64,000 nucleotides of DNA, from IMG/VR virus record IMGVR_UViG_3300036985_002657, positions 1 through 64,000 of that record; one strand, 5' to 3'. Below are positions 4,541 to 49,330 of this stretch, piece after piece. A model generated the notes under the pieces. The model saw only the letters and a list, made by a program, of their open reading frames with translations. It was not told the DNA's origin and ran no database searches. Numbering within the stretch: the stretch's first letter is position 1; each line of letters begins with the position of its first letter. The translations under genes and the position numbers were made by a program. The DNA is from a virus.

Positions 4541-4640
4541 CTGCACTCCGCGGGCGCAAGCTCGTGGAGTGCAGGCTGCGCCTTGGCGCTCGCCTTCTCC
4601 TCCCCACCTGTGGCGTCGAGGCGCAGCCTGCACTCCATGA
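4541..4640 (+). promoter_or_regulatory. Structured leader with mutually exclusive stems upstream of polA
   Basis: Hairpin 4541-4574 with GCAA loop, versus a perfect 19-bp inverted repeat 4565-4583/4619-4637. Confidence 0.55.
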
Positions 4641-4650
4641 ACGAGGAACG

Positions 4651-7236
4651 ATGATCAGACTCGCGCTGTACCCCATGCTACCGCAGGCAGCGGTCTCGCT
4701 CGCGCATCCCACAGCGGTCGATCACGACTGCGAACGCTGCGAGCTACACCAAGGCAGGCGTACCGTCTGCATGGCAGCCGAGGGCGCGCCTGGCGGGCTG
4801 CTCGTCGTCGCGGAGTCGCCCGGCAAGATCGAAGATCAGATGGGGCGCGGCTTCGCAGGTGCGGCGGGCAAGTACGTTCGCTCGCTGGTGGCGAAGCACT
4901 GGGGCGGCCCGGTGGCTTACGACCACGGTGTTCGGTGTCAGTCCACCGACGCAGGCGAGAAGGAGATCGCCGCGTGCCGTGTGTTCGGCGCGCGCATCCT
5001 GCTCGACGTGCAGCCGACGCGCATCCTGTGTCTCGGCAACGCGGCGGTGGAGGCGGTGCTCGGACATCGGCCGCCGCTCGCCAGCGCGCAACGCGGTTAC
5101 GGCTTCGTCTTCACCGCGCTCGATGATGCGATCCCCGTGTTCTTCCTGCCTGCCGCCGCGTTCGCGCTGCGCAACAGGTTCGTCAAGGCGGACTTCGAGC
5201 GCGACTTCCAACACGTCCTGACGTGCCCTGCGCCGGAGCCAGACTTCGACGAGCAGACAAACCTGATCGAGACTCGCGGCGATGCCGAGCTCGCCGTGCG
5301 CGTGCTCCAACAGGCTCCTTGGTTCTCCTACGACGTGGAGACCTCGGGCAAGATGGGCAACCCCGACTTCCGCATCGAGGCGCTGACGGCGATGGGCTTC
5401 GGGCAGGGCGATGCCTACACTTGGACCCGCGAGGCTCTGCGCGATCCGAGCATGACAGCGAAGCTGACCCAACTGCTCGCCGATCGCACCGTCGGCAAGA
5501 CGACACAGAACGGCAAGTACGATGATCGCTCCGTTCTTTGCGCGCTGAGCGTGAACGTCGAGGGCACCCGCTTCGATACCCGCCTCGGGCGCAAGCTGCT
5601 CGCCCCCGAGTCCGACGCACGCTTGGACACGCTTGCCTACCTCGTTGGGCTCGGCGGGCACAAGGACGAAGCGGGCGACCAGCTCGCGATCATCTGCAAG
5701 GAACTGCGCCGCCTTGCCAACCCACCTGCGCAACTGACGCCAAAGGGCAACGTGCGGAAGATCAAGCCGCCGTTGTTCCGTGTCGAGGAGTCCGTGCTCC
5801 AGCAGATCCGCGATGGTGAGGACGCGATGGCGTTCGCCTTCCGCTACCTCGATCCCACAACGCTCTACCGCTACAATGCGCGAGACGTGCAGGTGACGCT
5901 GCGCTGCGGCGTCAAGCTCGAAGCCGAACTCGCTGCCGACCCACAGACCAACCGCGTCTGGCGAGAGCTCACCGTCGGAGCCAACACCGCCGTCCGAGCG
6001 ATGGAGCACTGGGGCATCGCGTGCGACCGCCGCGCCGTCGAGATGTTCTCGATCTACTGCGAAGCGCGCATCAAGGACGCGACGAAGACGATCGAGAAGC
6101 ACGTCCCGGGGCTGAACCCCAACTCGCCGAAGCAGGTCGGCGACTTCCTGTTCAACAAGCTCGGGCTCAAGTCGTGGAAGGAGACCAAGAGCGGCGCGCA
6201 GTCTACGGACAACGAGGTGCTCGAGTCGCTCGCCCACAAGCACCCTGCGATCAACGCGCTGGTCAAGAGTCGCAAGTACACCAAGCTCAATGGCACCTAT
6301 GCACGCGGGATGCTGATCCATATTCGCGAAGACGGGCGCATCCACCCAAGCATCCTGATCGACGGCACGCGCACGCTGCGCTTCTCCTGCACCGATCCCA
6401 ACCTCCAGAACATCCCGCGTGCGGAGGGCGACGATGCGGTGGAGGCGGCGATGGCGCGCAACTGCTTCATCGCCCCGCCCGGCAGTCTGCTGCTCGAGCT
6501 GGACTACGCGCAGATCGAAGTGAAGGTGGCGGCGATGTTGGCGGGAGACGCGGTGATGATCGCCGACATCAACTCAGGCATCGACATCCATATGAACAAC
6601 GCGACTGCCTGCTGCACCGTCGCCTGGGGCATCCCGCGCGCGCAGTGGGATGCGATGGACAAGGCGGCGCGCAAGCCCTACCGCTCCAAGATCAAGACTG
6701 CGACCTTCGCCAAGCTGTACGGCAAGACGACGAGTGCGCTCGCCCGAGAGTGGGGCGCGCCAAAGGCCGAGGTCGAGAAGATCGACGCGGTGATCTGGGG
6801 CCGCTACAAACGCCTGGCGAAGTGGTGCGAGGAGCAGATCGCACAGGCGCGCCGCGTCGGCTACGTCGAGACGTGGTGGGACGGGCAGGCTGCCTACCGC
6901 CGCCCGCTGCACAAGGTCGCCGACCCCGAGGAGAACGTGCGCAAGCACGGCGAGAACGAGGCCGTCAACACGCCGGTACAGGGCACGGCGGCGCACTTCA
7001 TGTCGGCATCCCTGCCCCGCGTGCTCGACTGGATACGAGACGACGGCGCGCCCGCCAAGCTCGTCCTCACCGTCCACGACTCGATGATGCTCGAGGTGAA
7101 GGAGAAGTACGTCGATGAGGTGGCGCACGCCGCCCGCGACATCATGTGCAGCCATAACAGCAGCGGTGTGAAGATCACCGCCGATGCGAAGGTCGGGACC
7201 GCGTGGGGCTCGATGCAGGACTACGTCTTCAAGTGA
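4651..7236 (+). CDS. polA: Family A DNA polymerase with N-terminal family-4 uracil-DNA-glycosylase-like domain and 3'-5' exonuclease
   Basis: UDG-like CERC...AESPG...ED..G.F.G.AG...CLGN; exonuclease YDVET, NGKYD, YNARD; polymerase motifs PNLQNIP, LDYAQIE, KTATFAKLYG, NTPVQG, VHDS; ATG at 4651 after GAGG. Confidence 0.93.
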   Translation: MIRLALYPMLPQAAVSLAHPTAVDHDCERCELHQGRRTVCMAAEGAPGGLLVVAESPGKIEDQMGRGFAGAAGKYVRSLVAKHWGGPVAYDHGVRCQSTDAGEKEIAACRVFGARILLDVQPTRILCLGNAAVEAVLGHRPPLASAQRGYGFVFTALDDAIPVFFLPAAAFALRNRFVKADFERDFQHVLTCPAPEPDFDEQTNLIETRGDAELAVRVLQQAPWFSYDVETSGKMGNPDFRIEALTAMGFGQGDAYTWTREALRDPSMTAKLTQLLADRTVGKTTQNGKYDDRSVLCALSVNVEGTRFDTRLGRKLLAPESDARLDTLAYLVGLGGHKDEAGDQLAIICKELRRLANPPAQLTPKGNVRKIKPPLFRVEESVLQQIRDGEDAMAFAFRYLDPTTLYRYNARDVQVTLRCGVKLEAELAADPQTNRVWRELTVGANTAVRAMEHWGIACDRRAVEMFSIYCEARIKDATKTIEKHVPGLNPNSPKQVGDFLFNKLGLKSWKETKSGAQSTDNEVLESLAHKHPAINALVKSRKYTKLNGTYARGMLIHIREDGRIHPSILIDGTRTLRFSCTDPNLQNIPRAEGDDAVEAAMARNCFIAPPGSLLLELDYAQIEVKVAAMLAGDAVMIADINSGIDIHMNNATACCTVAWGIPRAQWDAMDKAARKPYRSKIKTATFAKLYGKTTSALAREWGAPKAEVEKIDAVIWGRYKRLAKWCEEQIAQARRVGYVETWWDGQAAYRRPLHKVADPEENVRKHGENEAVNTPVQGTAAHFMSASLPRVLDWIRDDGAPAKLVLTVHDSMMLEVKEKYVDEVAHAARDIMCSHNSSGVKITADAKVGTAWGSMQDYVFK

Positions 7237-12261: not shown

Positions 12262-13895
12262 TGCGTGTTTGCGAGATCGAACTGCTTGGCGTGATGACAC
12301 ACGCCCACTCCAAGGTCGCGCTGCCGCGCACAGGCATCGTCCTCGTCACTGGCCCCAACGGTGCGGGCAAGTCCTCGCTGCTCGAAGCCGTCAGCGTCGG
12401 CGGGTGGGAGGAGCCGCTGCGCCGCAAGCCAGTGTGGTCGGCTCCCAAGGCATCGATCACGCTGACCGCCGAGGTCGGGCGCGAGCAACTGGTCATCGAT
12501 CGCTCGCGGATCAAGAGCAAGAGCGCGCTGGTGTTCTCCTCGCCGACGGCGGTGCCCGTCACCTACGAGACGAAGACGAAGGCGCAGGCTGCACTCGAGC
12601 GCATGATCGGCTCGCATCTGCTCTGGCGCAGGACGTGTGTCTTCTCCTCGAGCGATGCCGATCACTTCACGCTCGCCACGGACGGGGAGCGCAAGAAGCT
12701 GCTCGAAGACATCCTCGGCTTGGAGCGATTCGATGCCGCGCACGCACTGGCGCTGAAGGCGAAGCGGGAAGCGGGCATCGCGGCGACGACTGCGGGCTCG
12801 ACGTTGGCGCTGGCTGCGGAGCGGCTTCAGGCCGGGCGCGACAGGCTGGCCGATGCCTTGGAACGACTACAGAGCCTTTCAGGGGGCAAGGACATGGCTC
12901 CAGGCGACCTTGCCCTGCTCGAGAAGGCACTCGAGCAAGCCGAACGTACAGTCACACGGAAACAGACCGCCTTCGATGAAGCGAAGGAGTCCCTCAACCT
13001 CGCCCATGCGGAGGTACGGGCAGCGGAGAAACGCGCGAGTCGCATCGAGGGACTGGACACCTGTACGCTCTGCGACCAGTCGATCAACTCCGCACACCAC
13101 GAAGCGATGCACGCGGAAGCTACGCGCGTGGTTGCGCACTGGGCTCCGATGATCGCAACGACCGAAGACCACATCGACGCGCTCCGCATCGAACTCCGCG
13201 CCGCCAACCAGCGTGTGATCACACTGAGCGAGAAGCGTGGGCGGCTGCACGCCGAGGCCCGTGCTGCGGCGAAGGTCGCCGAACAGCGTGCGACGGCTGA
13301 CGCGGCGGTGCTGGCGCTGCGCGAGAAGTGCGAGACGGCGGCTGACACGCTGGACGAATCGCGCGAGGCGCACAAGCTCGCCGAGGCCGAACTGATCAAC
13401 ATCACTGCTGCCGAGAAGGTGCTCTCGCTGACGGGCGTTCGATCCTACCTGCTCGGGCAGGCGTTGGCGGGCATTGAGGAGGTGGCGAACACCTGGCTTG
13501 CGCGCGTCGCGGGCGGCGGGCTCGAGCTTCGGTTGCAGCCCTACGCCGAGAAGGCAAGCGGCGGTGTGAAGGACTCGATCTCACTCGAGGTCGAGGGCGC
13601 AGGCGGCGGGCACGGCTACCGCGCTGCGTCGGGCGGAGAGCGGCGTCGCATCGACATCGCGCTGATGCTGGCGCTCGCGGAGATCGCGGAGGCCGCTGTC
13701 GGCACCACAGGCAATACGCTGTTCTTCGACGAAGTGTTCGACGCGCTTGACGGCGATGGCGTCGATGCTGCGTGTGCGGTACTAGACGAGCTCGCAGCGG
13801 ATCGCTGCGTCGTGGTCATCAGTCACAATATGGATCTCGCGGCTCGTCTGAATGTGACGAAGCACCTGACCATCAACAAAGGAACGATCTCGTGA
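12261..13895 (+). CDS. SbcC/Rad50 (gp46)-like SMC ATPase
   Basis: GPNGAGKSS, coiled coils with CTLC zinc hook, SGGE signature, FFDEVFDALD, VISH. Confidence 0.9.
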   Translation: MRVCEIELLGVMTHAHSKVALPRTGIVLVTGPNGAGKSSLLEAVSVGGWEEPLRRKPVWSAPKASITLTAEVGREQLVIDRSRIKSKSALVFSSPTAVPVTYETKTKAQAALERMIGSHLLWRRTCVFSSSDADHFTLATDGERKKLLEDILGLERFDAAHALALKAKREAGIAATTAGSTLALAAERLQAGRDRLADALERLQSLSGGKDMAPGDLALLEKALEQAERTVTRKQTAFDEAKESLNLAHAEVRAAEKRASRIEGLDTCTLCDQSINSAHHEAMHAEATRVVAHWAPMIATTEDHIDALRIELRAANQRVITLSEKRGRLHAEARAAAKVAEQRATADAAVLALREKCETAADTLDESREAHKLAEAELINITAAEKVLSLTGVRSYLLGQALAGIEEVANTWLARVAGGGLELRLQPYAEKASGGVKDSISLEVEGAGGGHGYRAASGGERRRIDIALMLALAEIAEAAVGTTGNTLFFDEVFDALDGDGVDAACAVLDELAADRCVVVISHNMDLAARLNVTKHLTINKGTIS

Positions 13896-14611
13896 GCGAC
13901 GAACAAGAGCAAGGCCGCGAGCTGGAATCACTCGGCACGTCAATGCGCGCCACAATCAAGCGGCTCCAGAAGGAACTCAGCGAGTCGATGGAACTGCGCG
14001 AGCGCGAGAACGACGCTCGCGCCGAGCTCGCCCTCCCGGTGGAGCACGCGCACGAGGCGGTTCGCTTCCTGCTCCGGCACATCGGCGAAGACCCGACGCG
14101 CGAAGGGCTGCTCGACACGCCGCGTCGCTGGGTCGATGCGATGCTCGAGATGCGCAGCGGCAACAGCGTCGATATCGCGAAGCTCCTCAAGGTGACGTTC
14201 GATTCGGGGCACTACGATGAGATCATCGCCGTGACCGACATCGCATACACTTCGATGTGCGAGCACCACCTCTTGCCGTTCACCGGCAAGGCAGCGGTGG
14301 CGTACCTCCCGTCCGAGGACGCAGGCGGCTACCGCGTTGTCGGGCTGTCGAAGATCCCGCGCCTCGTAGACGCCTTCGCGCGCCGCTTGCAGATGCAAGA
14401 GCAGTTGACGACGCAGATCGCCGAAGCGTTCGATGAGTACGTCAAGCCGCGCGGCGTCGCCGTGCTGCTCACCGGCGAGCACTCCTGCGCCTCGTGCCGG
14501 GGCGTGCGCAAGTCGGGGATGGTGATGATCACCTCGATTCTGCGGGGCGCGTTCCGCAACAACGAGGCAACGCGCGCAGAGGTTCTGCGCCTGATCGGAG
14601 GAAGCAAGTGA
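13892..14611 (+). CDS. folE: GTP cyclohydrolase I
   Basis: GEDPTREGLLDTPRR, SMCEHHLLPF.G, GLSKIPR, RRLQMQE.LT, HSC..CRG; GTG start from overlap; short N-terminal coiled-coil extension. Confidence 0.95.
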   Translation: MSDEQEQGRELESLGTSMRATIKRLQKELSESMELRERENDARAELALPVEHAHEAVRFLLRHIGEDPTREGLLDTPRRWVDAMLEMRSGNSVDIAKLLKVTFDSGHYDEIIAVTDIAYTSMCEHHLLPFTGKAAVAYLPSEDAGGYRVVGLSKIPRLVDAFARRLQMQEQLTTQIAEAFDEYVKPRGVAVLLTGEHSCASCRGVRKSGMVMITSILRGAFRNNEATRAEVLRLIGGSK

Positions 14612-14985
14612 CCACCCGCGCTACGAAGATCATCGCCACTGCGAGCATCGTCGGGTTCCACCGCTGGGAGGGCGCGCCGGAGGATGTGGCGTACCTCTCG
14701 CGCAACCACCGGCACGTCTTCACGTTCCGCGTCGAGCTCCTCGTCTCGCACGGCGATCGTGAGGCGGAGTTCCACACCGTCCAGCGCGCGCTCCGCTGGA
14801 TGCTCCCCCGGCTGGCGAAGGAGGCGCCGATGGCAAGCTGCCCCGAGGAGGCGTGGTTCGGCGGGCAGTCCTGCGAGATGCTCGCCGCGGCGCTGTTCAA
14901 CCAACTGGTCGCCTGCGGCTACACGCCGACCGCGATCGAGTGCTGGGAAGACAACGAGAACGCCGGGCGCGTGGAGTTCGCGTGA
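14608..14985 (+). CDS. QueD-paralog T-fold protein, DpdL-like (predicted 7-carboxy-7-deazaguanine decarboxylase)
   Basis: GFH.W, YLSRNHRHVF (LxxxHRHxF in place of QueD CxxxHGH), SCEMLA, WEDNEN; DpdL label rests on my recollection of that signature. Confidence 0.7.
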   Translation: MTTRATKIIATASIVGFHRWEGAPEDVAYLSRNHRHVFTFRVELLVSHGDREAEFHTVQRALRWMLPRLAKEAPMASCPEEAWFGGQSCEMLAAALFNQLVACGYTPTAIECWEDNENAGRVEFA

Positions 14986-15968
14986 TGCTGTGGGTGTTCC
15001 CCATCGAGCCGATCGAGGAACGGTACAGCGCGCAGTGGGCACGCTGGTGGCAGCGCGAGCTTGCACGGCTGCGTGTGCCGCACCGCTTCGTGATGCCGTG
15101 GCGGGACGTGGCGGCAATCCACACCGGACAGTTCCTCGACACGCGCCTCACCCACAAGTGGAAGGCGAACCAGCTGGCGATGTTCGTGAACGCGATCCTC
15201 GAAGGCGAAGTGCAAGACGGCGATTGGGTGATCCTACACGACGCCTGGAACCCGATGCTCGAGAGTCTCGCGTACATCAGAGACACCGAAGGGCCGAAGT
15301 TCAAGATCGCCGGGCTGTTCCACGCAGGCACCTACGACCCTCACGACTACCTCGCGCAGAAGGGGCTGGGCCGCTGGGCTGGGTCGATCGAGCGCGGGTG
15401 GCTCGAGGCGCTGGACCGCGTGTTCGTCGCCACCGACTACCATGCTGCGCTGATCAACCATCCCAAGGCGGAAGTGACCGGCTTCCCGTTCTACATCGAC
15501 GAGTTCGCCCGCCACTTCCGCCCGTGGGCTGAGCGGGAGAAGCTGGTGGTCTTCCCGCACCGGCTCGCGCCGGAGAAGCAGCCTGCGGTTTTCGATCAGG
15601 TGCGCGAACTGTACGCGCGGCGCTACCCCAGCGACGCGGTGCGCTGGGTGCGGACGCAGGACGTGTGCAAGTCGAAGGACGACTACTACTCGCTGCTCGG
15701 GTCGGCGCGCGTGTCGTTCTCCGCAGCCTTGCAGGAGACCTGGGGCATCGCGATGCTCGAGTCGCTGGCGCTTGGCGCTTGGCCGGTCGCGCCTGCGCGG
15801 CTCTCGTACCCCGAGACGGTGGGCTGGTTCAACCTCTACCCGCGCACCGCTGATTCAGTGGATATGATTCACGCACGCCTGCACGAGACAATCGCTTCGC
15901 CGTTCCGATACCCCGAAGGCGAGAACGCCATCGCTGCTATGATCGCTGCCATGCCAGGAGTCCTATGA
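14985..15968 (+). CDS. GT-B (GT4-like) glycosyltransferase
   Basis: FHAGTYDP.D, VVFPHRLAPEKQP, ETWGIAMLE (EX7E) and SYPE motifs; TGATG coupling to the previous gene. Confidence 0.8.
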   Translation: MLWVFPIEPIEERYSAQWARWWQRELARLRVPHRFVMPWRDVAAIHTGQFLDTRLTHKWKANQLAMFVNAILEGEVQDGDWVILHDAWNPMLESLAYIRDTEGPKFKIAGLFHAGTYDPHDYLAQKGLGRWAGSIERGWLEALDRVFVATDYHAALINHPKAEVTGFPFYIDEFARHFRPWAEREKLVVFPHRLAPEKQPAVFDQVRELYARRYPSDAVRWVRTQDVCKSKDDYYSLLGSARVSFSAALQETWGIAMLESLALGAWPVAPARLSYPETVGWFNLYPRTADSVDMIHARLHETIASPFRYPEGENAIAAMIAAMPGVL

Positions 15969-16933
15969 CCGTCGAGAGCTACGTCCACGAAGAAGGCACC
16001 GCGTTCAGCGCGTTGCCAGAAATCTACCAGATCGAACTGACGAATCACTGCAACCTCGCCTGCCCCATGTGTTTGCGCACAACGGGCATGGTGCGGCGTC
16101 CGCAGTTCCTCGACCGCGGTCTGATCCAGAAGATGCTCGCGCGCGGCGACTTCGCAGGCACGGCGTACACCGAGCTCCAGATGGCGGGCGAGCCGACGCT
16201 GCACCCAGAGCTCGGCGGCATCATCGACGATCTCAAGACCTACGGGCTACTGGTGGGAGCCAGCACGCACGGGCACGAGATCCAGCGGAAGCCAGGCGTG
16301 CTCGAGGCGCTCCTCAAGCTCGACGCGCTGACGATCAGCGTGGACTCGGTGGACCCTGAGATGTACGCCGCGATGCGTCCGCCGACGCAGCTCGACCACC
16401 TCATCGCAGCGATCGATGCGTTCGTGGTGGCCGCGCGCAAGCTGCCCACCCGCCCGCTCGTCGAGCTCCAGCTCATCCAGACCGTGAAGGAGCGCGGACT
16501 CGGCGACGCAAACCTCGATGCGCTTCATCGCGTCATGCAGGAGCGGGGCTGGGGCGACGTGTGTACGGCGCGCGTGCAGGGTGACTGCTTCCCCGAGATG
16601 CAGAACGTCGTGCAACTCGGCACCCGCAAGCGGAACGCCGATCTCTGCATCAACCCCTGGTCGTCGGTCTCGATGCTGGCGAGCGGGCAGGTCGTGTCCT
16701 GCTGCTACATCTTCGAGGCTGCTACCGACGCCGTCAACAGCTACGGCAATCTGAGCACGAACACGCTGGCGGAGGTCTGGGCTTCCGCTGCCGTGCAGGC
16801 GATGCGCGTGTCGCAGAAGACCGGCGAGCTTCGCGACGCCTGCCGTAGCTGCTTCCTCAAGAGCCCCACGCTGATCCACCAGAACATCGTGGCGCGCCTC
16901 GTTCGCAATCGAGCCATGCAGGAGAGAACATGA
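15965..16933 (+). CDS. Radical SAM protein with SPASM/Twitch domain
   Basis: CNLACPMC, GEPTLHP, ISVD; C-terminal CINPW...G.V..CC...GNL...CRSC. Confidence 0.88.
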   Translation: MTVESYVHEEGTAFSALPEIYQIELTNHCNLACPMCLRTTGMVRRPQFLDRGLIQKMLARGDFAGTAYTELQMAGEPTLHPELGGIIDDLKTYGLLVGASTHGHEIQRKPGVLEALLKLDALTISVDSVDPEMYAAMRPPTQLDHLIAAIDAFVVAARKLPTRPLVELQLIQTVKERGLGDANLDALHRVMQERGWGDVCTARVQGDCFPEMQNVVQLGTRKRNADLCINPWSSVSMLASGQVVSCCYIFEAATDAVNSYGNLSTNTLAEVWASAAVQAMRVSQKTGELRDACRSCFLKSPTLIHQNIVARLVRNRAMQERT

Positions 16934-17787
16934 TCAACGGCAAGAAGATGATCGCGCTGACCGGCGTAGAGAGCACGGGGAAGACGACGCTCACCACGGT
17001 GCTCACTGGGAGGCTGCGCACGCGCGGCATCTTGGCGGAGTCCGTGGGGGAGGCAGGCGCGGCGTCGCCCTTCCCCGGCGCGTTTCTCGACTCCGGCTAC
17101 GCAGGCTGGATGTACCTGATCGGCAACAAGATGGCGCTCGAGGTCACGAAGGCTACGCGCGCCAACGTCAACGTCGTGGTCTGCGATCGCACGCTGATGG
17201 ACTACGGGCTCTACTTCAAGACGCGCTTCCCAGGTCAGCCGATGGCAGAGGAAATCTTCGCACTAGCGCAGGAGTGGATCAGGCAGTACGACATGATCTT
17301 CTATCTGCCCCGCGCAGGCAGCACCTACCGGCAGGACGGCTACCGCGCTTCGCCCGCCGAGAACTACTGGCACGCGAAGGCGGACGCCGCCTACCTCGAG
17401 TTCTGGTCGGCGAACCCGCGCGCAACGTGCGTGCCGCAGGGCTTCGACTACCGGGAGCGCGGCGAGTTCGTCTACCACAAGGTCATTGAGAACCTGCTCG
17501 GGGAGACGAAGGCATCCCGCGCCTACGAGTACCTGCGCGAGTGGCTCAACGCGAACGGCGTGCGCGTGCTCGCCGTTCACCCGCGAGGCTCGCAGTCGAT
17601 CACAGAGACCAAGACGCCCCGCCCCGACAGCGATGCCGACGCGGTGATCATCGTGGACGGCGATGCCGACTACGCGCAGAGCGCCGCGACGATGTTCGCG
17701 CAGCATCGCGCCAACGTCGAGAAGGTGCTCCAGCACGATCTCGACCTCTGCTTCTCCCCTCGGCACCTCGCGGCGCACGAGCTCTGA
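16930..17787 (+). CDS. P-loop nucleotide-kinase-like domain fused to a Pol-beta-type nucleotidyltransferase-like domain
   Basis: IALTGVESTGKTT, VCDRT..D, YD.IFY, DGYR; C-terminal RGS.........DSDAD...IVD. Confidence 0.7.
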   Translation: MINGKKMIALTGVESTGKTTLTTVLTGRLRTRGILAESVGEAGAASPFPGAFLDSGYAGWMYLIGNKMALEVTKATRANVNVVVCDRTLMDYGLYFKTRFPGQPMAEEIFALAQEWIRQYDMIFYLPRAGSTYRQDGYRASPAENYWHAKADAAYLEFWSANPRATCVPQGFDYRERGEFVYHKVIENLLGETKASRAYEYLREWLNANGVRVLAVHPRGSQSITETKTPRPDSDADAVIIVDGDADYAQSAATMFAQHRANVEKVLQHDLDLCFSPRHLAAHEL

Positions 17788-18743
17788 TGCGAGTCTATCT
17801 CGCCGCGCCTGCGCAACTGTACCAGTACCACACGCCGTTCCAGGCGCGGCGACTGCTGATCTCCTTCGTCAAGATGAGTTGGGGCGTGGAGAAGTTCCAG
17901 CTAGCTCTCGACAACGCGAAACCCACACACGGGTATTGCGTGGACTCCGGCGCGCACGTCTGGCTGTCGATGTTCTTCAAGAAGCAGGAGAAGCCGCCGA
18001 TGGCAAAGGTCGAACAGACCATCGAGCGGTTTCTCCCGATGGTGCAACAACTGTCGGGCGACCCGCAGTTCGTCGTCGATCTCGACATCCAGCGCATCTA
18101 CGGTCTGCCGGTGATCGACGGCTGGCGCAAGACCATCTGGCAGCCCTTCGAGCGCGCGTCCGGCATCCGAGTCTGCTACGTCTGGCACCCGTCCGACGGG
18201 GAGGCGCGCTGGGAAGAACTGCTCGCCGATCCTGACGTTCACTACCTGGGGATGGGCTCGAGCTTCAAGATGATGCCCGTCGAGGCGTGGGCTCGTCTCG
18301 TCTACCGCGCCTACCAGGCAGGCAAGCCGGTGCATGGCTTTGCGAAGATCAACGCGAAGTATCTGATGAAGGTTCCCTTCTACTCCGTGGACTCGACATC
18401 CTGGGCGTCAGGATCGTTCTTCGGCACCGTCCCGCATTTCAACGCAACAACCGGCGCGATCAATCAACGATCCGTCGGCGACAAGGCTCGGCAGAACGTC
18501 GGTGCAGCAGCGGTGCTGACTCGGTTGGCAGTCACCGCGCAGGGTAAGATCAAGGCAGACCTACTCCAAAGGGGTGCGTTCATTGGAAAAGATTACCAAT
18601 CGTTCTACCAAAACGGCGTCGATCAGTACACCCGGTTCGAGGCGTGGTTCACCGCCTACTGGAAAGCCCGAGGAGTCGACTGGGACGCCCAGCTCGCTCG
18701 CCACGGAAACCTCGGGCCTCCCGACTCTCTCGATCCCAGATGA
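17787..18743 (+). CDS. DpdA/TGT-like TIM-barrel base-exchange (deazaguanine-inserting) protein
   Basis: VDSGAH, DLDI, VWH, LGMG, VHGFA and FYSVDSTSW match phage TGT-like proteins; context of folE and queE; ATG at 17787 via TGATG. Confidence 0.7.
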   Translation: MRVYLAAPAQLYQYHTPFQARRLLISFVKMSWGVEKFQLALDNAKPTHGYCVDSGAHVWLSMFFKKQEKPPMAKVEQTIERFLPMVQQLSGDPQFVVDLDIQRIYGLPVIDGWRKTIWQPFERASGIRVCYVWHPSDGEARWEELLADPDVHYLGMGSSFKMMPVEAWARLVYRAYQAGKPVHGFAKINAKYLMKVPFYSVDSTSWASGSFFGTVPHFNATTGAINQRSVGDKARQNVGAAAVLTRLAVTAQGKIKADLLQRGAFIGKDYQSFYQNGVDQYTRFEAWFTAYWKARGVDWDAQLARHGNLGPPDSLDPR

Positions 18744-18768: not shown

Positions 18769-19419
18769 ATGAGGCTCGGGATGGTCGAGACGACTCGGCT
18801 CGAGCAGCGCCGAGACAACCCGCGCGCTATGAGCACGTCGGAGTACGAGACCCTGAAGCGATCGATGGACAAGTTCGGCTTCAAGAGTTTCGTCGTCGCG
18901 GAGGAGATCGAGCCAGGCCGCTACGGTGTGATCGACGGCCACCACCGCTGGCGCGCTGCGACAGAGCGCGGAATGGCGCGCATCCCGGTCGTGCTGCTCG
19001 ATAGCGGCACCGACAAGTCCTGGGCGGACCTCGCCATGCTGACGTTCAACGTCACCGGCGACCCGCAGGAGGACAAGTACGTCGAGCTCCTCGCCGAGCT
19101 CACCACGCTGCTCGGTGCCGAGACAACGGCGCTGTTCACGGCGCTGGACACCAACTTCCTCGAATCCTTCGGCAAGAACATGGCGGAGACGATGGACGCC
19201 GCAGACGCCGCTACTGCCGCCGCAGGTGGCGAGGAAGCGGGCTGGCAAGGTCGCCCGATCCTCGTTGAGTTCCCGCGTGTCGATGATGTGGTGGCGCTGT
19301 TCGCCGAAGTGACTGCGCTGACTGGGGAGACAGTGCTTGGGCGTGCTGTACTCACCGCACTTCGCGAGTGGGTGAAGATCAAGCGTCCCGCACAAGACAC
19401 AGTGCAGGAGGTCGAATGA
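18769..19419 (+). CDS. ParB/Srx N-terminal-domain protein (modification-associated)
   Basis: NPR.M...L..S...FGF...VIDGHHRWRAA...G...IPVV; start uncertain (frame is open from 18574). Confidence 0.8.
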   Translation: MRLGMVETTRLEQRRDNPRAMSTSEYETLKRSMDKFGFKSFVVAEEIEPGRYGVIDGHHRWRAATERGMARIPVVLLDSGTDKSWADLAMLTFNVTGDPQEDKYVELLAELTTLLGAETTALFTALDTNFLESFGKNMAETMDAADAATAAAGGEEAGWQGRPILVEFPRVDDVVALFAEVTALTGETVLGRAVLTALREWVKIKRPAQDTVQEVE

Positions 19420-20096
19420 TCAAGCTCCAGCGATACGCGGTCACAGAAATCTTCCACACCATCCAGGGCGAAGGGCATCACGCAGGCACGGCGGCGGTCT
19501 TCATCCGTTTTGCAGGCTGCAATATGTGGGGCGGGCACGTCGAGAACAATGGCCGCCGCGCAGCCGCCGAAGCGCAGGAGGCGCACTGCCCGCTGTGGTG
19601 CGACACGGACTTCCGCGTTCGCGAGGTGCTGACGAGCGCGGAGATCCTCACCCGCGTCGGCAAGTTGCCGGGCGCACAGATGGTGGTGCTGACCGGCGGT
19701 GAGCCGCTGCTCCAGCTCACCTACGAGTTGATCGAGGAGCTCTACCGCCTGTTCGGCATGGTCGCTGTCGAGACGAACGGCACGCTGACGCCGCCCGCCA
19801 ACAGCCGATCGCTGCTCTGGCTGACGATGTCGCCGAAGGTCGCACCAGCGAAGATCAAGCTGCGCAACCCCAACGAGATCAAGGTCGTGTTCCCTGACTA
19901 CAATCCGCTCGACTACCTGCCATTCGCGGGCAAGCAGACGCGGCTGTTCGTGCAGCCGCGTGCGACGTGCGAGACGCAGACCGTCGGTAGGAGCCTGCTC
20001 GCGCCGGACGTGATCGGTGCGGCAGCGAACTTCGTTCTCACCCACCCCGAGTGGAGACTGAGTCTCCAAACCCACAAGTTGGTAGGTCTGCCCTAA
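19416..20096 (+). CDS. queE: 7-carboxy-7-deazaguanine synthase (radical SAM)
   Basis: EIFHTIQGEG..AG..AVFIRFAGCN...C...CDTDF, LTGGEPLLQ, ETNGT, SPK, EIKVV, WRLSLQTHK. Confidence 0.93.
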   Translation: MIKLQRYAVTEIFHTIQGEGHHAGTAAVFIRFAGCNMWGGHVENNGRRAAAEAQEAHCPLWCDTDFRVREVLTSAEILTRVGKLPGAQMVVLTGGEPLLQLTYELIEELYRLFGMVAVETNGTLTPPANSRSLLWLTMSPKVAPAKIKLRNPNEIKVVFPDYNPLDYLPFAGKQTRLFVQPRATCETQTVGRSLLAPDVIGAAANFVLTHPEWRLSLQTHKLVGLP

Positions 20097-21028: not shown

Positions 21029-21060
21029 AGGGCCGCGAGAGTGATCTCGCGGCCCTTTTC
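21029..21060 (+). terminator. Rho-independent terminator between the converging arms (probably bidirectional)
   Basis: AGGGCCGCGAGA-GTGA-TCTCGCGGCCCT 12-bp stem followed by TTTCGTTT; A-rich sequence upstream. Confidence 0.85.
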
Positions 21061-48940: not shown

Positions 48941-49330
48941 CTACGCGCGCCACTCGGCCCAGGAACTCGCCGTCTCGGACACGCGAACTCGCGTGACGGT
49001 GATCTCTGCGCCAGCCCCGCGCTCTACGTTGAGCGGTGCCAGTAGTTGCGCGCCGATGATCTGCGCGATGAGACTAGCGAGCAGTTCCGCCGTCGGCTGG
49101 TCGCCGAGATCAGCGTCGTCGTTCAGATGCCGATGCTCGAATCGAGTCTTGATCACCGAGCTCAGTACGCCGTAGTCAACCAGCATATTGAACTGGTCGA
49201 GCTCGTGCCCGCGCAGGTCGATCTCGACGGTGTAGTTGTGCCCGTGTAGGCGCGCGCACTGGTGCTCGGGCGCAAGACGCGTGAGCTGATGCGACGCCGA
49301 AAACTCGATGGTCTTGCTGATGACGATCAC
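48941..49330 (-). CDS. queD: 6-carboxy-5,6,7,8-tetrahydropterin synthase
   Basis: FSASH.L....H.CARLHGHNY.V, MLVDY..L, H.HLND, PTAE.LA, V.VSET..SWA. Confidence 0.93.
   Translation of the reverse strand: MIVISKTIEFSASHQLTRLAPEHQCARLHGHNYTVEIDLRGHELDQFNMLVDYGVLSSVIKTRFEHRHLNDDADLGDQPTAELLASLIAQIIGAQLLAPLNVERGAGAEITVTRVRVSETASSWAEWRA

Follow-up and report, generated by a model that had tools for sequence, protein, structure and literature searches.

A translationally coupled 7-deazaguanine operon

The DNA analysed here, called the window throughout, is a 64 kb stretch (positions 1 to 64,000) of the 77-kb IMG/VR virus record IMGVR_UViG_3300036985_002657, whose completeness is estimated at 87%. 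Its G+C content is 64%; the + strand carries replication genes and the − strand genes of baseplate type. We report on three consecutive genes at 14608-16933, encoding a T-fold protein of the DpdL family, a glycosyltransferase (GT) and a radical S-adenosylmethionine (SAM) enzyme (rSAM), which lie among genes of a 7-deazaguanine pathway. The genes of this module are the following.

13892..14611, + strand: FolE, GTP cyclohydrolase I, which starts 7-deazaguanine synthesis (PF01227 E 1.6e-63; TIGR00063 201 bits, cut-off 181.6)
14608..14985, + strand: DpdL-family T-fold protein, 125 aa, QueD paralogue, proposed 7-carboxy-7-deazaguanine (CDG) decarboxylase (LSRNHRHVF; phrog_17812 E 1.8e-15)
14985..15968, + strand: retaining GT-B (GT4-like) glycosyltransferase, 327 aa (predicted fold, EX7E motif)
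15965..16933, + strand: 322-aa radical SAM enzyme, auxiliary-cluster domain Twitch-like (partial SPASM) (PF04055, PF13186, BtrN profile match)
16930..17787, + strand: AAA_28 P-loop (kinase-like) protein (PF13521 E 5.1e-11)
17787..18743, + strand: putative DpdA-type guanine transglycosylase (TGT superfamily), basic, 318 aa (phrog_887 queuine tRNA-ribosyltransferase E 1.1e-18)
18769..19419, + strand: ParB_N-domain protein (PF02195 E 5.9e-9)
19416..20096, + strand: QueE, CDG synthase (TIGR04508 E 6e-45; ATG 19416 preceded by AGGAGG)
48941..49330, − strand: canonical QueD, 6-carboxytetrahydropterin (CPH4) synthase, away from the operon (PF01242 95.2 bits, E 1.6e-28)

Every gene junction between 13892 and 20096 was inspected on the sequence itself. 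A first-pass annotation, made by a model from the sequence alone, had described the triad as translationally coupled through GTGA, TGATG and ATGA overlaps, and all three are present: GTGA at 14608-14611 (FolE stop and DpdL start), TGATG between DpdL (stop TGA, 14983-14985) and the GT (start ATG, 14985-14987), and ATGA at 15965-15968 (GT stop and rSAM start). Upstream, the GTG start of FolE overlaps the stop of SbcC in a GTGA at 13892; downstream, ATGA at 16930 joins the rSAM and AAA_28 genes, TGATG at 17785-17789 the AAA_28 and DpdA genes, and ATGA at 19416 the ParB and QueE genes. The triad is part of a longer translationally coupled chain running FolE-DpdL-GT-rSAM-AAA_28-DpdA...QueE. Coupling alone says little, because start-stop overlaps are ordinary in phage operons; it is the identity of the coupled genes that matters. 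A megablast search of the operon against isolated phages gave no match.

No terminator-like site was found on the + strand between 11000 and 21500. The strongest terminator-like hairpin of the region lies on the − strand at 21029-21056 (12-bp stem, 9 G-C pairs, T-rich tail), within a stretch otherwise read on the + strand.

The T-fold protein belongs to the DpdL family

Signature, homology and genomic context all agree with the initial description of the T-fold protein as DpdL-like. Its residues 30-38, LSRNHRHVF, fit the LxxxHRHxF signature by which DpdL was defined against the CxxxHGH of QueD (Cui, Hutinet et al., NAR 2023, PMC10516641), and this signature is kept in nearly all of 98 family members. 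Searches of Pfam and NCBIfam gave no match. By tblastn, the protein is 32% identical to the founding DpdL, CGPG_00067 of Cellulophaga phage phiST, over 90% of its length (E 6e-7), and 11 residues are invariant in an alignment of 36 DpdLs that includes those of phiST, ACP17 and Phosso. Comparison of the DpdL family with the QueDs of the same loci by hhalign (93.6% probability, E 2e-7, 112 columns) aligns the HRH of DpdL to the HGH of QueD, and Leu30 to the invariant QueD Cys. The T-fold protein had been said to lack the catalytic Cys of QueD, and Leu30 indeed stands in its place. It had also been argued that a real QueD exists separately, so that the T-fold protein is no substitute for it; this was borne out by the canonical QueD at 48941-49330 (− strand), whose C25...H29-G30-H31 are invariant in the QueD alignment. 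The genomic context, FolE, QueD, QueE and a DpdA-type gene without QueC, matches the published DpdL setting; no QueC was found in the 77-kb record, an absence that is not absolute as the record is ~87% complete.

Positions 14869-14877 of the window encode DpdL residues S88-C89-E90, which are invariant in all 36 aligned DpdLs. Cys89, overlooked in the earlier annotation, adjoins a Glu aligned to the invariant Glu of QueD. The published model of the DpdL decarboxylase uses no Cys (PMC10516641). In the same study, dpdL and dpdA of phiST and of ACP17 were expressed in E. coli and yielded no deoxy-7-deazaguanine (dDG), a result for which the authors allowed for missing enzymes (PMC10516641).

The glycosyltransferase is predicted to be a retaining GT-B enzyme

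The structure of the GT was predicted with AlphaFold2 (AF2) at a predicted local distance difference test (pLDDT) score of 95.1. Its best structural match is MshA (Z score 25.2, root-mean-square deviation (rmsd) 3.5, 308 of 327 residues aligned), with BshA at Z 24.6, and the top 50 matches, between Z 25.2 and 21.6, are all retaining GT-B enzymes. As modelled, the protein is a retaining GT-B enzyme made of two Rossmann domains. Residues E251-x7-E259 (the EX7E motif), R193 and K198 are invariant among 40 GT sequences. Judging from its spacing, the R193/K198 pair would be the counterpart of the Arg/Lys pair with which MshA and PimA hold the diphosphate of the nucleoside diphosphate (NDP). The acceptor-side N-terminal domain has invariant residues of its own: E8, Y14, W18, D86, W88, Y97, D118 and D121.

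At the sequence level the match to Glycos_transf_1 (PF00534) has an E-value of 4e-5 and 23.7 bits, under the Pfam cut-off of 26.4, and a sequence-profile search of the PDB gave no matches. Many members of the GT family, which counts more than 600 proteins, carry PF00534 or PF13439 in precomputed annotation.

The radical SAM enzyme is Twitch-like

The rSAM matches PF04055 (45.6 bits, cut-off 29.5) and PF13186 (40.3 bits), both above cut-off. The Pfam SPASM model matches Twitch proteins as well. The family is small, with ~70 proteins at 34-66% identity and a sharp drop beyond, and its invariant Cys residues are C29-x3-C33-x2-C36 (CX3CX2C), C228, C246, C247, C293 and C296. When compared with the seven-Cys SPASM motif, taken as CX9-15GX4C - gap - CX2CX5CX3C - gap - C (two auxiliary clusters), only the first half is present, as C228-x12-G241-x4-C246. 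All that is left of the second half is C293-x2-C296, with the conserved S300-P301...H305 after it and no other conserved Cys.

The best PDB match for the family profile is BtrN (E 4.5e-15), and the match spans the SAM core as well as the auxiliary-cluster domain. Residues C228, C247, C293 and C296 align to the Cys of the CMVP, PC and CKNC segments of BtrN, which we take to be the auxiliary-cluster ligands of that enzyme (4M7T). BtrN is also the best structural match (Z 20.1, rmsd 3.1, 235 of 246 BtrN residues); SuiB and DesII come next within 1 Z unit, then MoaA (17.9), BlsE (17.8) and SpeY (12.8). We concluded that the rSAM is Twitch-like, with a single auxiliary cluster of the BtrN type, and not a full SPASM enzyme. 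The label radical SAM-SPASM given in the first-pass annotation therefore holds for radical SAM and not for a full SPASM domain, as half of the motif is present in a BtrN-type Twitch pattern.

In cellular genomes, relatives of the rSAM are distant only (19-29% identity). The 125 open reading frames (ORFs) immediately neighbouring the nearest of them include 10 cytidylyltransferases, 8 GT1 and 6 GT2 glycosyltransferases, 6 NDP-sugar epimerases or dehydratases and 3 DegT aminotransferases, counts that stand without a measured background rate. As a lead only, the ESM Atlas lists among structural neighbours a cluster where a comparable rSAM-SPASM protein is fused to a GT2. The matches to BtrN, with weaker support from the cellular neighbours, suggest that the rSAM is directed at a sugar; alcohol oxidation of the BtrN type is itself a prediction by analogy.

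Nested co-conservation in viral loci

Three locus searches of IMG/VR were performed without any information on the partner genes. The rSAM-anchored search gave 22 loci and the GT-anchored one at least 597 matches, of which the best 80 were kept; with DpdL as the anchor, 563 matches were obtained and again the best 80 used. A single-protein search with the rSAM found no loci, and it was an alignment-based search that found them. ORFs were clustered without annotation and the profiles built from these clusters were applied to later loci; ORF calling was naive, and the profiles were built from the very loci scanned.

DpdL was found in 75 of the 80 GT-anchored viral loci. Among 24 loci bearing the rSAM (the 22 anchored on it and 2 reached via the GT), 23 have the GT, and the remaining locus is truncated by the end of its contig. 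Collapsing the GTs at 90% identity left 123 non-redundant lineages: DpdL lies near the GT in 119 (in three of the other 4 the GT lies where the contig stops), and a TGT/DpdA-like gene is present in 106, most of the lineages without one being short loci. The GT accompanies the rSAM in each of its 27 lineages, separated from it by a median of 62 bp; DpdL occurs in 26 of these lineages and a TGT-like gene in 24. The tightest pair of the module is GT-DpdL, with a median gap of 257 bp and a distance of 100 bp or less (adjacent or overlapping) in 38 lineages. Gene order varies from lineage to lineage (rSAM-DpdL-GT, DpdL-rSAM-GT, GT-rSAM and others), and the module occurs in phages with PolA-type as well as with T4-like PolB-type replication genes. 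Its neighbours are replication and recombination genes: PolA, RecA, SbcCD, clamp and PolB.

The first-pass annotation had named a lack of co-conservation with dpdA as one finding that would speak against it. The triad was instead found co-conserved with dpdA-type genes, as the 119/123, 106/123 and 27/27 ratios show. In the reverse direction, the GT is present in 25 and absent from 13 of the 38 DpdL-anchored loci flanked by 4 kb or more on each side, and phiST likewise has DpdL and no GT. The distribution is thus nested, DpdL containing the GT and the GT containing the rSAM, as expected for successive steps of one pathway.

The closeness of GT and DpdL would also fit another role for the latter. 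In GT-bearing phages, DpdL might be no simple decarboxylase and might make or present an acceptor handle (a hydroxyl, or a 7-substituted deazaguanine) that the GT then glycosylates, as in the glucosylation of 5-hydroxymethylcytosine; the base would then not derive from plain dDG. An invariant Cys89 beside the substrate-anchoring Glu, superfluous for a pure metal-assisted decarboxylase, would find a use, and the failure of dpdL and dpdA to yield dDG in E. coli when taken from ACP17, which bears a GT, would fit as well. However, phiST, where DpdL occurs without a GT, does contain dDG, and all 11 invariant residues are common to the GT-linked DpdLs and that of phiST, so that a different reaction is not indicated. 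We regard this role for DpdL as unlikely.

The same loci bear on whether the product is in DNA at all. The GT and the rSAM could make a soluble deazapurine or pterin glycoside, serving as a metabolite, an inhibitor or a cofactor mimic, in the manner of huimycin and dapiramicin or of the cyanobacterial pterin glycosides. GT4-type enzymes do act on free 7-deazapurines (HuiG) and on tetrahydrobiopterin (BGluT, structural Z 22.4), T-fold proteins bind both pterins and purines, and the mildly acidic isoelectric points (pI) of GT, DpdL and rSAM (5.7-6.3, compared to 9.4 for the DpdA-type protein) fit soluble substrates. Such a product is nevertheless hard to reconcile with a TGT/DpdA-like gene accompanying the GT in 106 of 123 lineages, with exceptions mostly on short contigs, with the placement of the module among replication and recombination genes, and with the restriction-resistant, G-modified DNA of the GT-bearing phage PA5oct (PMC12191111). 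We consider a soluble glycoside improbable, and place it just below the preceding alternative.

Two radical SAM types alternate beside one clade of glycosyltransferases

In 17 GT-anchored loci, the GT is adjoined by an unrelated radical SAM protein of ~440 aa (e.g. L031:7005-8324, + strand). Its best PDB profile match is AprD4 (E 2e-11), with weak matches to B12-type rSAM families. AprD4 is a radical SAM dehydratase acting on a 1,2-diol, by which an aminoglycoside sugar is deoxygenated. When the rSAM of the window and this second, AprD4-like type were searched by tblastn against 50,697 phage records, no match was obtained, hence no cultured carrier was found.

A FastTree phylogeny of the 123 GTs, a quick tree with several long branches, groups 39 lineages in one clade (support 99). 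Twenty of them have the window-type rSAM, 16 the AprD4-like type and 3 neither; the two types are interleaved on the clade and never co-occur. The other large clade (59 lineages) is mostly without either rSAM and often has a phosphoribosyltransferase instead; all cultured phages on the tree (ACP17, PA5oct and Phosso) belong to it. Cultured phages bearing both GT and DpdL include Acidovorax ACP17, Pseudomonas PA5oct, Sinorhizobium Phosso and Xanthomonas X1/BUDD. Mapping of partner labels on the tree required 37 changes, versus 65 in shuffles, and this value was reached in none of 200 shuffles. This shows clustering, not co-evolution.

Alternation of two radical SAM types beside one GT clade, each of them closest to an enzyme that tailors an aminoglycoside sugar, is our chief new reason to place the action of the rSAM on the sugar. 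The first-pass annotation had offered this only as its alternative, a tailoring of the sugar by analogy with BtrN-type Twitch enzymes. It is now the better supported of its two branches, given the BtrN matches, the AprD4-like replacement and the cellular neighbours.

The primary idea of that annotation was that decarboxylated 7-deazaguanine has a free C7 open to C-glycosylation or radical functionalisation. In the radical form of this idea, the rSAM would act on the deazapurine ring, by radical chemistry at the free C7 or C8, for example formation of a C-C bond of the MoaA type, with the GT decorating the product or acting independently. In the MoaA model, a ribose radical attacks C8 of guanine. 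MoaA is itself of the Twitch type and binds a guanine nucleotide at its auxiliary cluster; the N-terminal half of the rSAM also matches MoaA (TIGR02666 E 6.8e-11; structural Z 17.9), and decarboxylation would leave an unsubstituted, electron-rich C7=C8 bond. The distribution argues otherwise, as the rSAM is always found with the GT (27/27) whereas DpdL is often found without either, and as an AprD4-like enzyme takes the same slot in one GT clade. Furthermore, the match to BtrN beats that to MoaA and all four auxiliary Cys are kept, whereas the auxiliary cluster of MoaA has three Cys and one site left for the substrate. Action on the ring is in our opinion doubtful, about as much so as the handle-making role of DpdL.

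The tree also bears on whether the GT has anything to do with the deazaguanine genes. Phage GTs commonly serve serotype conversion or modify other bases, and the fold alone is silent on the acceptor, so that virion proteins, host envelope glycans or another base might be the target, and adjacency an operon accident. This would leave unexplained why the family is almost always found with DpdL despite differing replication modules and shuffled gene order, and why partner labels cluster on the GT tree (37 vs 65, 0/200 shuffles). The invariant aromatic and acidic residues of the acceptor-side domain also point to one conserved acceptor. An unrelated target is, we believe, very improbable.

A proposed pathway to a glycosylated 7-deazaguanine

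We lean, without strong conviction, towards a glycosylated 7-deazaguanine in the DNA of this phage, with a sugar modified by the rSAM. The pathway would start with FolE, QueD and QueE turning GTP into CDG, as their strong family matches imply. In the absence of QueC, DpdL would then, as proposed in the literature, convert CDG to 7-deazaguanine. The basic DpdA-type transglycosylase would, as its family match suggests, swap guanine in DNA for the deazaguanine base. The retaining GT-B enzyme would move a hexose or N-acetylhexosamine from a host NDP-sugar to the deazaguanine, either before insertion, with the free base as acceptor, or once the base is in DNA. The exocyclic N2 has the precedent of huimycin, and C7 or C8 would lack one. 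Last, the Twitch-type rSAM would take a hydrogen from a carbon of the sugar, which would then be oxidised, epimerised or deoxygenated, as BtrN does on an aminocyclitol. The last three steps might follow in another order; the acidic pI values would suit a free base or an NDP-sugar, and we do not rely on them. The likely benefit is the shielding of phage DNA from restriction and other nucleases.

Several points weigh against this pathway. First, 7-deazaguanine has no hydroxyl for an ordinary O-glycosylation, and the acceptor atom is a guess. The data speak neither for nor against the C7 C-glycosylation envisaged in the first-pass annotation; we know of no C-glycosylation by a retaining GT-B enzyme, and transfer to C7 would, by comparison with that enzyme class, be unprecedented. 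Second, the CDG decarboxylase activity of DpdL is a literature proposal, unproven even for the founding members. Third, both structural rankings, obtained with predicted models, are flat: with the top 50 GT matches between Z 25.2 and 21.6, neither donor nor acceptor can be named from the fold, and SuiB, which modifies peptides, and DesII both score within 1 Z unit of BtrN. Fourth, the acidic pI of GT, DpdL and rSAM would suit small-molecule substrates better than DNA-bound ones. Fifth, the loci are the best 80 of ~600 matches, so that the percentages describe the nearer relatives of the window proteins. Finally, the support is entirely computational and leads from gene identities, catalytic motifs, folds and co-conservation, which are established here, to a chemistry that we infer at every step past CDG. 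A complex prediction for GT and DpdL scored 0.00, which is no verdict and counts neither way.

To our knowledge, the sugar-bearing bases of DNA are all pyrimidines: glucosyl- and arabinosyl-5-hydroxymethylcytosine, base J and the recent sugar-alcohol thymidines. A stronger form of our proposal is that the window phage and at least 100 related uncultured lineages carry the first sugar-bearing purine in natural DNA, and that a virus-specific Twitch rSAM (in sister lineages, the AprD4-like enzyme) oxidises or deoxygenates its sugar in situ; we hold this as a serious possibility, short of leaning towards it. If the proposal is true, a glycosylated purine analogue would be a new chemical class of sugar-bearing DNA base, and radical SAM sugar tailoring would join DNA hypermodification. 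It would explain why DpdL and DpdA of ACP17 alone failed to recreate the modification in E. coli. It would also offer a candidate identity for the unexplained G modification of the PA5oct jumbo phages, which END nucleases detect and which are relevant to phage therapy of Pseudomonas. With at least 597 IMG/VR matches to the GT family, the modification would be common in nature, and a deazapurine-recognising GT together with two radical SAM families in a nucleic-acid context could become tools for DNA labelling.

Other genes of the module and its relatives

In the DpdA-type family, D53 is invariant with G55-A56 (DSGA consensus), as is D202; the window protein has neither a Pfam TGT match nor a PDB match by sequence profile. 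A second TGT-like subfamily, of 400-540 aa and acidic (median pI 5.9), replaces the basic window-type DpdA in 52 loci, e.g. L019:9871-11070 (+), L051:4331-5893 (+), ACP17 (L001:6709-7983) and PA5oct (L002:6367-7989). Isoelectric point had been tried as a decisive test between DNA and small-molecule substrates, and was dropped because this second subfamily is acidic too.

A phosphoribosyltransferase (PRTase; PF00156, E 1.5e-14) accompanies GT and DpdL in T4-like PolB-type lineages (L043:4635-5072 (+), L051:12178-12669 (+) and ~30 others), which hints at a nucleotide-level route there. PA5oct has the TGT-like gene, the GT, DpdL and the PRTase. Neither a phosphoribosyltransferase nor a PIG-L deacetylase, both of which accompany the GT in other lineages, was found in the 77-kb record of the window phage.

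Only 7 related loci have a homologue of the AAA_28 protein, which is coupled on both sides between the rSAM and DpdA. The nucleotidyltransferase match over the last ~90 residues of this protein (GS...DSDAD) is no more than weak (NTP_transf_2, E 0.014-0.066), and its comparison with CGPG_00066, the P-loop neighbour in phiST, gave P-loop similarity only (E 1.0, not significant). The ParB_N-domain gene follows DpdA in the window and in 13 related loci; its start is uncertain, with in-frame candidates at 18712 and 18769. Immediately 5′ of the queE ribosome-binding site, the + strand reads GCACAAGAC at 19390-19398.

The family A DNA polymerase of the window (4564-7236, + strand) has an N-terminal uracil-DNA-glycosylase (UDG) domain (PF03167, residues 79-208). 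A 2026 paper (PMC13697223) links UDG-fused PolA to phages with T-modified genomes; a second base is perhaps modified in the window phage.

Comparison with known systems

The α- and β-glucosyltransferases of T4, acting on 5-hydroxymethylcytosine, offer the same overall scheme, namely a phage GT-B enzyme, a base modified first and a sugar added next, and protection of DNA. They differ in that they O-glucosylate the hydroxymethyl group of a pyrimidine, whereas the substrate here would be a purine analogue without a hydroxyl. The two T4 enzymes had no sequence match to the window GT and were absent from its top 50 structural matches; distant kinship is possible.

In the literature we found a single precedent of a GT with a 7-deazapurine acceptor, and it is an N-glycosylation: HuiG, of the huimycin cluster of Kutzneria albida, transfers GlcNAc onto the exocyclic 2-amino group (PMC7439116). 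In the huimycin cluster, which we compare along with the dapiramicin glycosides, a GT gene lies, as in the window, beside genes of the FolE/QueD/QueE type, and huimycin-family GTs carry PF13439 (the GT4 N-terminal domain); the likeness of HuiG to the window GT is one of description, not of sequence alignment. Unlike the product proposed here, huimycin is a secondary metabolite made from preQ0, with QueC present and without DpdA, and is not in DNA.

MshA and BshA are GT4 enzymes that transfer GlcNAc from UDP-GlcNAc to inositol phosphate or malate, hence to small molecules. The window GT shares with them the retaining GT-B fold and the EX7E motif, at 12-13% identity, and is 30-70 residues shorter. 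The rSAM resembles BtrN, a 2-deoxy-scyllo-inosamine dehydrogenase of the Twitch type (PDB 4M7T), in profile, in the four auxiliary Cys and in fold. It is, however, only ~15% identical to BtrN and ~70 residues longer, and has one more invariant Cys (C246, the fifth) as well as a C-terminal helix that is conserved (S300-P301...H305).

Among GT-bearing phages, PA5oct is reported to have modified guanines, of a structure not known, and is a target of nucleases that sense hypermodified DNA (PMC12191111). Literature searches on DpdL, on DpdA with glycosyltransferase, on PA5oct or ACP17 with deazaguanine, and on glycosylated deazaguanine returned no description of the module. The closest described system is the dDG system of phiST (FolE, QueD, QueE, DpdL and DpdA3; PMC10516641). 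The main text of that paper holds no word in "glycosyl-", and its sole match to "radical SAM" is a cited title. The window shares with phiST a CDG pathway without QueC, a DpdL with the LxxxHRHxF signature, a putative DpdA-type transglycosylase and a neighbourhood of replication genes. phiST has neither the GT nor a second radical SAM gene, whereas in the window the GT, the rSAM and a P-loop protein lie between dpdL and dpdA. What is new relative to the dDG system of phiST is the addition of a glycosyltransferase and a radical SAM enzyme.

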